Source: a virus
Taxonomy: Duplodnaviria > Heunggongvirae > Uroviricota > Caudoviricetes
DNA: 16,327 nt
Direction: 5' to 3' (one strand)
IMG/VR virus record: IMGVR_UViG_2645728010_000001
In this document: positions 829 through 14,024 of the stretch, piece by piece
How positions within the stretch are numbered: the stretch's first letter is position 1
How the letters are laid out: every line of letters starts with the position of its first letter
Made by a program: the position numbers and the translations under genes
The notes under the pieces: generated by a model
Told to the model about the DNA's origin: nothing
The model's input: only the letters and a program-made list of their open reading frames with translations
Databases searched by the model: none

Positions 829-1020
829 TTAAAGACCTGCCGGGATTTCGATATTATCCTGGTGAATAACTTTATCGACCGGGTAACAGTTACCGGGAAT
901 TTTCTGTTCGGTTGCTGCAGTCATACACTCCTGCATTGTCCTGTGAACACTGTCTGCAATATCAACTGGCTCTCCGGAAACAAGAAAAACTGTCAGAACA
1001 AGCGCAAATGCTGAATTCAT
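829..1020 (-). CDS. ydfD: YdfD-like small protein (63 aa; K-12 YdfD reported as lysis-inducing)
   Basis: Internal ATG (MNSAFALVLTVFLVSGEP...) overlaps the dicB stop in an ATGA arrangement (translational coupling); 63 aa matches Qin YdfD size and position directly after dicB. Confidence 0.6.
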   Translation of the reverse strand: MNSAFALVLTVFLVSGEPVDIADSVHRTMQECMTAATEQKIPGNCYPVDKVIHQDNIEIPAGL

Positions 1021-1205
1021 TGTGTACATCCTTTTGGCATCAGACGTAAACGAGCCAGCATTGAAACAATGCATATTTTATTTAATAGCTCCCGTTCTTG
1101 TTTTCTCTTGTTAATGGCATCTTCAGTAAATACAGGGTTACTGATAGTGACACCAATTTCAAAACAACCTTCAGACGTATTAACGTTTGGTAATAACGTT
1201 TTCAT
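1017..1205 (-). CDS. dicB: cell division inhibitor DicB (MinC-interacting)
   Basis: 62-aa product MKTLLPNVNTSEGCFEIGVTISNPVFTEDAINKRKQERELLNKICIVSMLARLRLMPKGCTQ matches recalled DicB essentially end to end; lies about 175 nt downstream of dicF as in Qin. Confidence 0.85.
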   Translation of the reverse strand: MKTLLPNVNTSEGCFEIGVTISNPVFTEDAINKRKQERELLNKICIVSMLARLRLMPKGCTQ

Positions 1206-1379: not shown

Positions 1380-1432
1380 CGGCGGCAGAGCAGTCACGGA
1401 GTAAAACTGATACCGCCAAACGTCACCAGAAA
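1380..1432 (-). ncRNA. dicF: DicF sRNA (ftsZ-targeting antisense RNA) with 3' hairpin and U-tract
   Basis: Minus-strand sequence UUUCUGGUGACGUUUGGCGGUAUCAGUUUUACUCCGUGACUGCUCUGCCGCC followed by UUUUU matches recalled 53-nt DicF; position between ydfC-like gene and dicB. Ends approximate. Confidence 0.8.
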
Positions 1433-2254: not shown

Positions 2255-2406
2255 CAGTCAGTGTTTCTGGCTAACCAGCAACGCGCGCCAGATTCGGTTT
2301 TAAACGTTTTGCTTTTGGTATATGTCATCGCGGTGAACGTACCGTCCTGGTTGGGGAACACGCCACATACCAGAGATTCGCTGTTGCCAAGATCGATAGT
2401 ATCCAT
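2254..2406 (-). CDS. small protein, first gene of dicB operon (ydfA-like position)
   Basis: 50-aa ORF from ATG (MDTIDLGNSES...) with GAGG-type RBS; sits directly downstream of the operator palindrome at 2521-2538. Confidence 0.4.
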   Translation of the reverse strand: MDTIDLGNSESLVCGVFPNQDGTFTAMTYTKSKTFKTESGARCWLARNTD

Positions 2407-2520
2407 GCTGACCTCATTTCCCCTTAACGCCGGGGTAGCGGAACTGTTTGCTGAGAACACCGTGCGGTGTCTTGATGGAAAGTAATTTAGAATAACCTAA
2501 CATGAGAGGCAAGTGTTTTT

Positions 2521-2538
2521 TGTTAGATTGATCTAACA
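2521..2538. promoter_or_regulatory. palindromic operator TGTTAGA-N4-TCTAACA in dicB-operon control region (probable DicA site)
   Basis: Inverted repeat tgttagattgatctaaca, extended by flanking T5/A5, between the dicA stop and ydfA-like start; same half-sites as the site at 3032-3049. Confidence 0.5.
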
Positions 2539-2574
2539 AAAAGGGTGGGCGCAACTAATCACTTGAAAAGAATG

Positions 2575-2982
2575 TTATTTTATTGATTTATTTTTACGCG
2601 CTTTAAGCATTTCTTCGAAGAGTTTGTTGAAGTTTTCTACTCTTGCGCGCATTTCAGACAGCAAGGCTTCCTGCTCGGAAGATGGAAGAGCATCGAATAA
2701 TTCGATCAATTCTTTGTGGTTGGGAGTTAGCTCTGTTTCCACATGAAGTTCTTGTGCAGGCACTGGTGCCTTGTCTTCGTCACCAAACATTAGCCATGTA
2801 GGTGAGCACTTCAGAGCATCCGCTAAAGCAAACAATCGTTTTCCGACTGGCTGGGTTTCGTCTCTTTCCCATTGTGAAATTGTGACGTGAGCAACTCCAG
2901 CGAGGCGCGCAGCTTCTCGTTGTGTTAAGCGTAATTCTTTTCGTCGCGCCAGAACTCGCTGGCCTAGGGTTCTTGTATCCAT
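2575..2982 (-). CDS. dicA: DicA-like XRE-family HTH repressor (prophage immunity/division control)
   Basis: 135 aa; N-terminal HTH (LRLTQREAARLAGVAHVTISQWERDET), SPTWLMFGDEDK and C-terminal MRARVENFNKLFEEMLKARK segments match recalled DicA; divergent from a Cro-like gene. Confidence 0.85.
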   Translation of the reverse strand: MDTRTLGQRVLARRKELRLTQREAARLAGVAHVTISQWERDETQPVGKRLFALADALKCSPTWLMFGDEDKAPVPAQELHVETELTPNHKELIELFDALPSSEQEALLSEMRARVENFNKLFEEMLKARKNKSIK

Positions 2983-3004
2983 AGTTAGGTAATTCTAATT
3001 TTTC

Positions 3005-3049
3005 TTGACTTAGGTATCCCGCGCACAATAATGTTAGAAAAGTCTAACA
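3005..3049 (+). promoter_or_regulatory. dicC-type promoter (-35 TTGACT, 16-nt spacer, -10 AATAAT) overlapped by operator TGTTAGA-N4-TCTAACA
   Basis: Hexamers read directly; palindrome tgttagaaaagtctaaca at 3032-3049 overlaps -10/+1; GAGGGGG RBS and ATG follow. Confidence 0.5.
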
Positions 3050-3062
3050 AGAGGGGGCTTTG

Positions 3063-3290
3063 ATGCTTAAAGTTGACGCAATTACTTTTTTTGGCAGCAA
3101 AACAAAGCTTGCCAATGCCGCAGGAGTGAGACTGGCAAGTGTTGCTGCTTGGGGGATACTGGTTCCTGAAGGTCGCGCGATGCGTCTACAGGAGGCATCT
3201 GGCGGGGAGCTTCAGTATGATCCCAAAGTTTATGACGAATATCGTAAGACGAAGCGGGCGGGGCGGTTGAACAATGAAAATCACTCCTGA
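3063..3290 (+). CDS. dicC: DicC/Cro-like small DNA-binding regulator
   Basis: 75-aa ORF divergent from dicA-like gene with shared operators; size and organisation match DicC; my sequence recollection of DicC is imperfect. Confidence 0.6.
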   Translation: MLKVDAITFFGSKTKLANAAGVRLASVAAWGILVPEGRAMRLQEASGGELQYDPKVYDEYRKTKRAGRLNNENHS

Positions 3291-3795
3291 ACAGGCTCGT
3301 GAGGCTCTGGATGCCTGGATATGTCGACCAGGAATGACACAGGAGCAGGCGACGATATTAATCACTGAAGCATTCTGGGCTTTGAAAGAGCGCCCGAACA
3401 TCGATGTTCAGCGTGTCACATATGAAGGTGGCGCGGTTGATCAGCGAGCGCTTAGCGTTAATCGAGTGAAGATATTCGAACGCTGGAAGGCTATCGACAC
3501 CAGGGATAAGCGTGAAAAGTTCACAGCGCTAGTGCCTGCAATTATGGAGGCTATCCGGATTAGTGATTTCAGGTTGTATCGTGAGATCAGTGATGGAAAA
3601 AGTATTACGTACATGATCGCCGGGTTAAATAAAGAATATGGCGATGTGGTGGAATCCGGACTGCTTTTTGCAGATCCTGCCGTTGTAGATCGTGAAACTG
3701 ACGAACTTATAGAAAAAGCAATTGCTTTCAAGCTTGCGTATCGACAGCAATACCAACAAAAAGCTGGATGGAATTATGAGTCTTCTTTTTGCTGA
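3274..3795 (+). CDS. hypothetical early-region protein (possibly YdaT-like, a CII-type regulator)
   Basis: 173-aa ORF overlapping the 3' end of the cro-like gene and the 5' end of the replication gene; assignment to YdaT is by position only. Confidence 0.45.
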   Translation: MKITPEQAREALDAWICRPGMTQEQATILITEAFWALKERPNIDVQRVTYEGGAVDQRALSVNRVKIFERWKAIDTRDKREKFTALVPAIMEAIRISDFRLYREISDGKSITYMIAGLNKEYGDVVESGLLFADPAVVDRETDELIEKAIAFKLAYRQQYQQKAGWNYESSFC

Positions 3796-5141: not shown

Positions 5142-5345
5142 TGGCAATTTATTGTCTTGTTATTGTTCTTATGGATCACCTTTCTGATTGATTTCATATT
5201 GGAGAGGTAACGGTAGTTAAGTAGAATGGCTGCGGGTGCTTGAGGCTATCTGCCTCGGGCATGAACACCAACGGCAGATAGAGAAAAGCCCCAGTTAACA
5301 TTACGCGTCCTGCAAGACGCTTAACATTAATCTGAGGCCAATTTC

Positions 5346-5558
5346 ATGCTAGACACATGTAGGTTAGCCTCTTACGTGCCGAAAGGCAAGGAGAAGCAGG
5401 CTATGAAGCAGCAAAAGGCGATGTTAATCGCCCTGATCGTCATCTGTTTAACCGTCATAGTGACGGCACTGGTAACGAGGAAAGACCTCTGCGAGGTACG
5501 AATCCGAACCGGCCAGACGGAGGTCGCTGTCTTCACAGCTTACGAACCTGAGGAGTAA
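5346..5558 (+). CDS. mok: Mok-like in-frame upstream extension of hok (modulator of killing)
   Basis: 70-aa ORF in frame with hok from ATG 5346 (MLDTCRLASYVPKGKEKQA-MKQQ...), the same architecture as recalled MokC/HokC. Confidence 0.45.
   Translation: MLDTCRLASYVPKGKEKQAMKQQKAMLIALIVICLTVIVTALVTRKDLCEVRIRTGQTEVAVFTAYEPEE
5403..5558 (+). CDS. hokD: Hok/Gef-family type I toxin (HokD/RelF-like)
   Basis: 51 aa MKQQKAMLIALIVICLTVIVTALVTRKDLCEVRIRTGQTEVAVFTAYEPEE; AAGGAG RBS 7 nt upstream; single TM helix plus conserved C-terminal Hok segment. Confidence 0.85.
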   Translation: MKQQKAMLIALIVICLTVIVTALVTRKDLCEVRIRTGQTEVAVFTAYEPEE

Positions 5559-5626
5559 GAGACCCGGCGAGGGAGAAATCCCTCGCCACCTCTGATGTGG
5601 CAGGCATCCTCAACGCACTCGCACTT

Positions 5627-5655
5627 AACCCGCTTCGGCGGGTTTTTGTTTTTAT
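5627..5655 (+). terminator. rho-independent terminator downstream of hok
   Basis: aacccgc-ttcg-gcgggtt hairpin followed by tttgtttttatttt; an additional perfect 8-bp hairpin (ggcgaggg...ccctcgcc) at 5567-5587 may be the hok mRNA 3' fold-back element. Confidence 0.6.
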
Positions 5656-5774: not shown

Positions 5775-6026
5775 ATGATGAACATCGAAGAACTGCGTAA
5801 AAATTTTTGTGAAGATGGCCTCTATGCTGTGTGCGTTGAAAATGGAAATCTTGTTAGTCATTACCGCATTATGTGTTTGCGAAAGAATGGGGCTGCGTTA
5901 ATTAATTTTGTGGATGGTCGAGTGACAGACGGATTTATCTTGCGCGAAGGTGAGTTTGTCACTTCATTACAGGCACTGAAAGAGATCGGAATAAAAGCAG
6001 GCTTTTCAGCTTTTGCAGAAGAATAA
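5775..6026 (+). CDS. rem: Rem-like small protein (function unknown)
   Basis: 83-aa ORF with GGAAGGA RBS; size and position (hok -> rem -> ydfU -> Q) match Qin order. Confidence 0.5.
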   Translation: MMNIEELRKNFCEDGLYAVCVENGNLVSHYRIMCLRKNGAALINFVDGRVTDGFILREGEFVTSLQALKEIGIKAGFSAFAEE

Positions 6027-8290: not shown

Positions 8291-8440
8291 ATGATAAAAA
8301 AACCTGTGATTGGGATCAGCGGTTGTTTGGGCGGTTCTGCTGTTCGTTTTGATGGTGGTCACAAAAGAGATGACTTTTTAATGGACAAATTAGTGGAATG
8401 GGTAACATTCAGACCAGTATGTCCGGAAATGGCTATATGA
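8291..8440 (+). pseudogene. 5' fragment of a DUF523-type gene truncated by IS3
   Basis: Strong RBS GGGGGAGG; MIKKPVIGISGCLGGSAVRFDGGHK resembles DUF523 N-termini; ORF stops in a TGA supplied by the IS3 terminal repeat; 49 aa where about 150 is expected. Confidence 0.45.
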
Positions 8441-8467
8441 TCCTACCCACGTAATATGGACACAGGC

Positions 8468-9334
8468 CTAAGCGAGGTTCTGGTTTTCAAATTGTTCCGG
8501 ACTGAGGCCGCCACACCAACTGTGCCGCCGCCACCGATTGTAATCACATTCGATATAATTAAACACCGTTGCCCGCATTATTTCCCGGCTGATAAAGTGT
8601 TCTCCATGGATACATTCCACTTTCAGCGAATGAAAGAAGCTTTCCACGCAGGCATTATCGTAGCAGCAACCTTTTGCGCTCATACTTCCACGCAGATTAT
8701 GCCGCTTCAGTTGCGCCTGATAATCTGCTGAACAGTACTGGCCTCCACGGTCCGTGTGAACGATAACGTTCCGGGGCCTCTTACGCCGCCACAGCGCCAT
8801 CTGCAGGGCATCGCAGGCCAGTTGCGCCGTCATGCGTGGCGACATTGACCAGCCAATAACGGCACGTGACCACAGGTCAATGACCACTGCCAGATACAGC
8901 CAGCCTTCATCTGTACGTAAGTACGTGATGTCTCCTGCCCACTTCTGGTTCGGGCCACTGGCGTAAAAATCCTGCTCCAACAGATTTTCTGACACAGGCA
9001 GGCCGTGTGCGCGGTAGCTGACCGGGCTGAACTTCCGGGAGGCCTTTGCCCTCAGTCCCTGACGGCGCAGGCTTGCCGCCACGGTTTTTACGTTAAAGGG
9101 GTAACCCTGAGCACGCAGTTCATCCGTCAGGCGTGGGGCACCGTAACGCTGTTTTGACCGGGTAAAAGCCGCGAGGACAACGCTGTCGCAGTGTTGGCGG
9201 AACTGCTGACGCGTGCTTATCCTTGTCCGCCGCTGACACCACGTATACCAGCCGCTGCGGGCCACCCGGAGCACGCGGCACATTGCTTTGATGCTGAACT
9301 CAGCCTGATGTTTTTCAATAAAGACATACTTCAT
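8468..9334 (-). CDS. insF: IS3 transposase OrfB (DDE integrase-like)
   Basis: 288 aa; matches recalled IS3 OrfB; overlaps orfA in ATGA arrangement. Confidence 0.9.
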
Positions 9335-9630
9335 TTCAGGCGCTTCGCGAAGTATGTCGCGGCCTTTTGGAGGATAGCCAGCTCTTCATCCCGTTCTGCC
9401 AGCTGGCGTTTGAGACGTGCAATCTCGGTAGACATCTCCAGTTCACGTTCAGAAGACGTCTGCTGATTTTGCTGTTTACTGCGCCAGTTGTAGAGTTGTG
9501 ATTCATACAGGCTGAGTTCACGGGCTGCGGCAGTAACACCGATGCGTTCAGCAAGCTTCAGGGCTTCACTGCGAAATTCAGGCGAATGCTGTTTACGGGG
9601 TTTTTTACTGGTTGATACTGTTTTTGTCAT
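9331..9630 (-). CDS. insE: IS3 transposase OrfA (HTH)
   Basis: 99 aa from ATG ([31 protein letters not shown]...); the ORF track's longer start is an upstream GTG. Confidence 0.9.
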
Positions 9631-11592: not shown

Positions 11593-11873
11593 TGCGAGAT
11601 TTAATTATCAAATTCACAGACAAGGCCGACTTTTCGGCCTTTATGAAGAGTGCTGGCTATTATGATGACGAGTCGATGCAGGATGATATTCTTATTGACG
11701 TGATAGGTAACGTGTACAAAGAAACCGGAGAACTTACTGAAGATGGCGAGCCGGTATGTGTTAAGGAAGACGGATATTTTGTAAACGTGCGCATCATTAA
11801 TGATGCAAAAAAATCGTCAATATTCGATAAATACGCGGTTGTTGTTGAGCATCAACTTCGTGGCTGGATGTGA
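11592..11873 (+). CDS. hypothetical acidic 93-aa protein (possible tail-fibre chaperone or accessory)
   Basis: ATG overlaps stf stop (TAATG); no recognised family. Confidence 0.5.
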   Translation: MRDLIIKFTDKADFSAFMKSAGYYDDESMQDDILIDVIGNVYKETGELTEDGEPVCVKEDGYFVNVRIINDAKKSSIFDKYAVVVEHQLRGWM

Positions 11874-13709: not shown

Positions 13710-14024
13710 AGTGAGACTCTATACGAAATTGGTGTTCATATCATAATGCATCTCAGAAAATAATTTTGATTATTTTTGTGCATATTTGTATGTACACGTT
13801 CGAAAATAAACGAATGCGTATGCAACCCCGTAATTTTGGTGAGACCCAAAATCGATTTTGTGAAAAATGGCTTTAACTCGGTTTGTTTTTCGAGTTCCAG
13901 GCGGACTCAAGGAAGAAGAATAGTGTTGCGTGTTATTTTAACCAGATTTCAAGTTGTTTGGTCGTGGAAAAGTGGAGCAAAATGTTGTTAAAGTGGAAAA
14001 TGATAAAAAAGTAAGTTAATTATA

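Follow-up and report, generated by a model that had tools for sequence, protein, structure and literature searches.

Immunity regions of cryptic prophages that keep host-toxic division inhibitors silent are a known case, of which the locus described here is the E. coli B allele. The best described example is that of E. coli K-12, where DicA binds the operator Oc (5'-TTGTTAGTCATAACTAACAA) in vivo, a single A-to-C change in it (CTAACA to CTCACA) abolishes binding, and DicA did not bind at Om or Oa, the two further sites defined by sequence, but at Oc alone; at Oc, DicA represses dicC and has been proposed to be an activator of dicA (PMC3441716). Deletion of dicA in K-12 raises dicBp 22-fold, DicA is again reported to repress dicC, repression by DicA is lifted by the antirepressor Rem, and the published account has three sites, defined by sequence alone (PMC10448788). 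The operators in the dicA–dicC and dicA–dicBp intergenic regions resemble those of lambdoid PR and PL, a likeness that the same article relates at second hand, crediting Béjar et al. 1988 (PMC10448788). Reg-Seq lists the DicA site at dicC as gold-standard and that at dicB as low-evidence, location unknown (PMC7567609). Control of two promoters by a single repressor is, for K-12, an established model (Béjar 1988; Yun 2012; Ragunathan 2023).

The stretch of DNA analysed here, 16.3 kb in length and called the window below, has in common with the Qin (Kim) prophage of K-12 its gene order (dicC divergent from dicA, then dicBp, ydfA to dicF, dicB and ydfD, with rem farther rightward), the TGTTAG-N6-CTAACA hexamers and their distances from dicA, the geometry of both promoters and the site beside rspAB. 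However, its repressor is only 57% identical to K-12 DicA; its distal dicBp site is a perfect palindrome, whereas the right half of this site reads CATACA or CAAACA in K-12-type loci; the central six bases of the operators are free in the window's type and constrained to YYATRR in the K-12 type; and a ydaT-like gene is found in its rightward operon along with replication genes, a set that K-12 has partly lost.

The repressor N-terminal domain is also homologous to that encoded by immC of P22, and DicC belongs to the P22_Cro family. The P22 operators are 18 bp long, with two 7-bp arms around four central bases as in the window's sites, and one P22 repressor acts both at the divergent PR/PRM pair and at PL. 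Nonetheless, the window half-site is TGTTAGA and not of the ATTTAAG type that is the familiar P22 consensus, which sets the locus apart from P22 immunity specificity; the window repressor (135 aa) is without a LexA-like cleavable C-terminal domain; and each promoter region has a strong and a weak site, 49 bp (dicA–dicC) or 36 bp (dicBp) apart, in place of three closely adjacent ones. A lambda-type triplet was likewise not found: with up to 3 mismatches allowed in the outer 12 positions, each side of dicA had no more than two sites, at these same 49-bp and 36-bp distances.

Another cryptic lambdoid immunity region, the PaaR2/YdaS/YdaT switch of the E. coli O157:H7 prophage CP-933P, has analogues of PR, PRM and PL and shares with the window 18-bp palindromes common to the intergenic region and the PL-like promoter, and ydaS/ydaT-type genes lying rightward (PMC8630535). 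It differs in repressor family, in half-site (GTTTAGTAA consensus) and in having a toxin-antitoxin pair after the repressor; binding in CP-933P has been footprinted, whereas for the window allele we infer binding, as well as cooperativity and dicA activation. As with antirepressor-controlled repressors of the Gifsy type and the Rem–DicA pair, the window repressor is short and without a RecA-cleavage domain, and rem is present in the prophage.

The prophage and its palindromes

The 1.1 kb between 2200 and 3300 of the window are 100% identical to E. coli B (REL606, BL21(DE3)), E. coli C and others, and the window is a Qin-like prophage of E. coli B/BL21/C. The BL21(DE3) copy is a degraded prophage adjoining rspAB, and Qin in K-12 is likewise located next to rspAB. 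An IS3 element interrupts the degraded prophage (window about 8300–9630, with the left end also concerned), and truncations or frameshifts affect its genes for tail fibre, exonuclease VIII and integrase, according to the annotation of the identical BL21(DE3) sequence.

The repressor gene (Table 1) encodes a full-length homologue of K-12 DicA (77% positives over 132 of 135 aa, E 4e-55). Its residues 1–71 matched the N-terminal domain of P22 C2 in a phmmer search against PDB (1ADR, 1.3e-18; 2R1J, 3.6e-18), Pfam assigned HTH_3, and a LexA-like cleavage domain was not found by Pfam in the 135-aa protein, whose sequence reads as a P22 C2-type helix-turn-helix N-terminal domain joined to a short helical C-terminal domain. 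The dicC-like gene is adjacent and divergently transcribed. The minus strand also carries a DUF1391/ydfA-like gene and ydfD (dicB and ydfD being annotated in the identical BL21(DE3) sequence), and the plus strand carries replication genes, hokD/sok and rem, to whose product Pfam gave no family. The gene context proposed in an earlier note on this DNA (a dicA-like gene, a dicC-like gene and a DicF/dicB operon) is confirmed by homology, Rfam and the annotation of the identical BL21(DE3) sequence. Within the rightward arm, a sok antisense RNA (Rfam, 115 bits) lies beside a hokD-type toxin gene (5234–5408 and 5346–5558, both on the plus strand).

Table 1. Genes, predicted promoters and candidate operators of the immunity region (window coordinates).
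Feature	Position	Strand	Details
dicB, cell division inhibitor	1017–1205	-	annotation of identical BL21(DE3) sequence; ORF present
DicF sRNA gene	1380–1431	-	Rfam RF00039, 72.5 bits; in dicBp-like operon
Predicted dicBp-equivalent promoter (PL analogue)	2484–2512	-	-35 TTGCCT 2507–2512, 17 bp, -10 TAAATT 2484–2489
Candidate promoter-proximal, weaker operator	2485–2502		TGTTAGGTTATTCTAAAT (minus strand); overlaps spacer and -10
Candidate promoter-distal operator	2521–2538		TGTTAGATTGATCTAACA; about -61 to -44, just upstream of -35
dicA-like repressor gene	2575–2982	-	135 aa; 57% identical to K-12 DicA
Weak Oa-like site	2983–3000		AATTAGAATTACCTAACT (minus strand); 3 mismatches in 12 outer positions
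Predicted dicC-like promoter (PR analogue)	3005–3032	+	-35 TTGACT 3005–3010, 16-bp spacer, -10 AATAAT 3027–3032
Candidate Oc-type operator	3032–3049		TGTTAGAAAAGTCTAACA; abuts -10, covers predicted dicC start
dicC-like gene (P22 Cro family)	3063–3290	+	86% identical to K-12 DicC; Pfam P22_Cro, E 4.9e-12
YdaT-family gene	3274–3795	+	Pfam
rem	5775–6026	+	annotated in BL21(DE3)

A pattern scan of the whole window found TGTTAGANNNNTCTAACA exactly at 2521–2538 (TGTTAGATTGATCTAACA) and 3032–3049 (TGTTAGAAAAGTCTAACA), as the earlier note had reported, with no third match anywhere in the 16.3 kb when up to 2 mismatches were allowed. The chance expectation, even with up to 2 mismatches, was 0.07, and none of 200 dinucleotide-preserving shuffles contained two or more matches. 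Perfect 7-N4-7 palindromes number 8 in the window (about 1.1 expected under a first-order Markov model), the common half-site being confined to these two. Others are located at 654–674, 5568–5585, 5627–5644, 11623–11640 and 13758–13775; several of these five are G+C-rich and terminator-stem-like, and none carries the operator half-site. A chance repeat, or a functionless relic of duplication, would draw on the A+T-rich composition of the region and on nothing else, and it is set against both the expectation and the shuffles given above and the conservation of the sites, in position and sequence, in Escherichia, Citrobacter and Buttiauxella, where the spacer is variable; we give it a negligible probability. 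At 2521–2538 the repeat is lengthened by TTTT/AAAA to 11-bp arms (2517–2542), beyond which T2516 faces G2543 and pairing ends, so that the T5/A5 arms described earlier were roughly right, the fifth position being unpaired.

Predicted promoters and candidate operator sites on either side of dicA

The rightward, dicC-like promoter matched the consensus at 10 of 12 positions in a consensus scan. The palindrome at 3032–3049 begins at the last base of its -10 (AATAAT), so that the overlap with the -10 claimed in the earlier note amounts to one base, and the site mainly covers the start. It is placed at -67 from the dicA ATG, compared with -68 for K-12 Oc, and has identical hexamers; by position and sequence it reads as the orthologue of K-12 Oc (TTGTTAGTCATAACTAACAA). 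The order TTGACT, -10, operator is also that of K-12 (TTGACT-17-TATCTT, followed by TGTTAG...) and of PPompW-type loci.

On the dicA side of this promoter, the weak Oa-like site at 2983–3000 overlaps a -10-like TAGAAT (2992–2997), the putative dicA -10, about 9 nt before the dicA ATG, and its position at -18 is kept in all immunity types. TAGAAT so close to the ATG suggests a nearly leaderless dicA mRNA, and the lambda cI message is also leaderless. The repressor gene paaR2 is another leaderless example (PMC8630535). The function of 2983–3000 is uncertain because the K-12 Oa counterpart did not bind DicA in vivo. Since both the site and DicC are nearly identical in the immunity types designated A and B below, it is a candidate for the preferred site of DicC, which may be analogous to Cro at OR3. 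A middle, Om-like site was sought between the Oc-type and Oa-like sites, where nothing better than 3/6 plus 4/6 was found in the window's immunity type.

Beyond dicA, the minus strand presents in order the distal palindrome (2538–2521), an A-tract, TTGCCT (2512–2507), 17 bp, TAAATT (2489–2484) and CATCAAG; the K-12 counterpart reads TGTTAGCTATAGCATACA, TTGACC-17-TAATCT and CATCAAC, with 2521–2538 aligning with TGTTAGCTATAGCATACA upstream of the TTGACC -35. This leftward promoter was read from sequence, its hexamers matching the consensus at 8 of 12 positions, which is under the threshold of the promoter scan. Its -35, 17-bp spacer and -10 followed by CATCAA recur in K-12 (TTGACC-17-TAATCT), the PPompW type, phiES15 and mEp460, and transcription is predicted to start at about 2476–2477, at the conserved CATCAA. 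An explicitly mapped dicBp start was not found in a literature search, and the predicted start and the RNase III cut 813/814 (which yields the 190-nt DicF) are consistent to about 6 nt only if the numbering of the cut begins at dicBp; the exact start sites at both promoters are predictions.

The earlier note had assigned 2521–2538 to the leader of the dicB operon; it lies instead upstream of the -35 (Table 1). It had also counted two operators, and both exact sites stand, with weaker ones added at 2485–2502 and 2983–3000. The first of these, at 2485–2502, departs from the 14-position pattern at 3 positions, or at 2 if the 12 outer ones alone are counted, lies 36 bp centre-to-centre from the distal site, and has a right arm that doubles as the -10 of the dicBp-like promoter; it appears to be the site positioned to occlude RNA polymerase. 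As the distal site is centred near -52 and could not occlude polymerase alone, repression of dicBp would rest on 2485–2502 or on cooperativity.

The inverted repeat at 2516–2543 could also be read as an RNA hairpin which ends dicA transcripts or stabilises their 3' end, for it is 32 nt past the dicA stop, it folds with -9.6 kcal/mol (z = -7), and no other terminator was found between dicA and the toxic operon. The stem, however, is A/U-rich and is followed on the dicA strand by ACACUUGCC and not by a U-tract, while the K-12 equivalent, at -5.6 kcal/mol (z about 0), is no more stable than shuffled sequence; moreover, the hexamers are conserved while the spacer is variable, and the same hexamers occur at two other positions, at which a hairpin would have no role. 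A hairpin function is, on these grounds, very improbable. An intrinsic terminator in the strict sense was considered for the same repeat and rejected, since the repeat was absent from the terminator scan and has neither a G+C-rich stem nor a U-tract on the dicA strand.

Comparison of related loci

Related loci were collected from species-representative genomes, GenBank phages and IMG/VR; a first IMG/VR profile scan returned almost only identical copies, and scans seeded with the PPompW, phiES15 and K-12 proteins were added. The resulting 264 loci, 255 of which have an intact repressor of 133–137 aa, represent 161 distinct combinations of N-terminal domain and flanks and 28 variants of the N-terminal domain. 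Sites were extracted by anchored position, because de novo choice of the best palindrome per upstream region picked up unrelated palindromes at the beginning of the dicC coding sequence. Four helix-turn-helix types were distinguished: type A, that of this window (LTQREAARLAGVAHVTISQWE); type K, that of K-12 (HTQRSLAKALKISHVSVSQWE); type B, that of PPompW (LSQAALGKLVKVAHVTISQWE); and type E, that of phiES15, whose helix-turn-helix differs (FTQQQLADKVQKSSVSVFKWE).

The motif search across related prophages that the earlier note had suggested shows that the sites hold their position: Oc is at -67/-68 from the ATG across the 161 distinct loci, the distal site follows the dicA stop by about 36–41 nt in types A and K and is farther away in type B, and the proximal and distal sites are spaced 34–37 bp apart in 56 of 57 type-A, 47 of 47 type-K and 42 of 50 type-B loci. 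In type A, TGTTAG and CTAACA are conserved to about 100%, and no columns of the region vary more than the six central bases; at the distal site, too, 46 distinct type-A sequences have conserved hexamers and a variable spacer. Conserved hexamers around a variable centre are the pattern expected of a site bound by a dimer.

When the Oc pattern of each locus was compared with the downstream region of that locus, the mean number of mismatches in 12 positions was 0.12 for type A, 1.72 for type K and 2.72 for type B, against 4.6–4.9 for shuffled sequence and 3.6–4.0 for comparisons of type B with A or K. Type B has CCTTAG...CTAAGG at Oc, with aCTTAGG and yCTTAGG as left arms at its two dicBp sites, so that position 2 changes from G to C, relative to type A, at all three sites. 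The lambdoid phage mEp460, which has a complete sequenced genome, has another recognition helix (VSGSSISLWES) but agrees in architecture, promoter geometry and leader; its Oc is ATTGAG-N4-CTCAAT, its distal site CTTGAG-N4-CTCATC, and its proximal site AATGAG-N4-CTAAAT lies over the spacer and -10 of TTGACG-17-TAAATT. This locus (mEp460_ev081, 1190–1885) looks like a further immunity type of the DicA-style switch.

The helix-turn-helix of DicC is essentially unchanged between types A and B. Since the outer half-site positions differ between these two types, these positions track DicA. In two to three other immunity types, the half-sites appear to change together with the DNA-binding domain of the repressor and not with DicC, a co-variation seen over few independent immunity types (two clear ones and, more weakly, phiES15).

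These comparisons bear on the proposition that the palindromes serve chiefly the Cro-like DicC, with DicA acting elsewhere or only indirectly. It is usual for Cro-type and CI-type proteins to bind the same operators, types A, K and B (DicC proteins 84–92% identical) have the inner TTAG...CTAA core in common, and DicC of O157:H7 represses dicA and influences dicB, according to work cited in PMC10448788. Against this, not only do the outer half-site positions follow the DicA N-terminal domain while types A and B have one and the same DicC helix-turn-helix, but in K-12 DicA binds Oc in vivo, with an effect that is abolished by deletion of dicA (PMC3441716), and deletion of dicC leaves basal dicBp activity unaltered (PMC10448788). 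Operators serving chiefly DicC are accordingly a quite improbable reading, and exclusive use by DicC is not likely; what is likely is that DicA and DicC share the operators, as in lambda.

The locus comparison is the strongest computational support available for one repressor reading both promoters. With regard to the central bases, the K-12-type operator centre is constrained and self-complementary (YYATRR, for example CATA, CATG or TATA), while that of the window's type is free, a difference that may reflect indirect readout separating two repressors with common hexamers.

The proposed switch and the leader of the dicB operon

Both palindromes are very probably operators of the DicA-like repressor encoded between them, in an immunity switch of the Qin lambdoid type. 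That a single repressor serves the two promoters is well supported by sequence comparison and by analogy, because the locus is orthologous to that of K-12 and the half-sites at both promoters co-vary with the repressor helix-turn-helix. The earlier note had put forward the same arrangement, one repressor for the Cro-like gene and the DicF/DicB operon; its core holds on the evidence of K-12 orthology and the related loci, and it is not new.

A repressor dimer on 3032–3049 would cover the -10 end and the start, shutting off dicC and the genes behind it, and by analogy with K-12 would probably also stimulate the weak, nearly leaderless dicA promoter. Occupancy of 2521–2538 and 2485–2502 would exclude RNA polymerase from the promoter of ydfA-dicF-dicB-ydfD, keeping the division inhibitors silent; filling of the weak proximal site would probably be cooperative, repressor being recruited to it by the strong distal one. 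Derepression could come about through the Rem antirepressor or through a flip to DicC.

A single E. coli genome can hold as many as 8 copies of related prophage sequence, and the TGTTAG/CTAACA hexamers are common to the K-12-type and B-strain operators although the DicA proteins are 57% identical, so that cross-repression between co-resident Qin-like prophages is conceivable. We tentatively suggest, as a possibility that is rather doubtful, that the repressors of such prophages act on one another's dicB/dicF operons, tuned by the central bases, and that cooperative or looped oligomers enclose the repressor gene; Oc is 511 bp from the distal dicBp-side site.

The analysis refines the known case in three respects. 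The likely DicA sites at the dicB-operon promoter, the location of which Reg-Seq gave as unknown for K-12, are placed base by base; comparative evidence indicates that the sites follow the DNA-binding domain of the repressor over several immunity types, including that of the viable phage mEp460; and BL21 and its relatives carry a variant with a perfect distal operator. The sites offer clean mutagenesis targets for controlling or removing DicB/DicF expression in E. coli B strains.

A leader of about 70 nt (2406–2477, minus strand) separates the dicBp-like start from the first gene; it is conserved in all immunity types, including those in Pantoea, Erwinia, the Cronobacter phage phiES15 and mEp460, and more so than the operators. 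Its position directly behind a PL-type promoter, in an operon that has no recognisable N gene, suggests that it might be a cis-acting antitermination (nut/put-like) or processing element. A search of Rfam gave no match for the leader at the gathering threshold or at E up to 10, no put annotation for comparison was found in the HK022 record, and RNAalifold predicted a stem of 4 pairs only. A hairpin at 2456–2471 shows compensatory variants of its stem (GACACC/GGTGTT and AATCACC/GGTGATT). A possible H-type pseudoknot at 2420–2440 would combine the stems CGCT/GGCG and CCCC/GGGG; in this structure, which was derived from the same sequences on which it was tested, 90.7% of cells are paired, compared with at most 44% when the partners are slid, four pairs are changed on both sides, and none of 500 shuffles reached the observed score.
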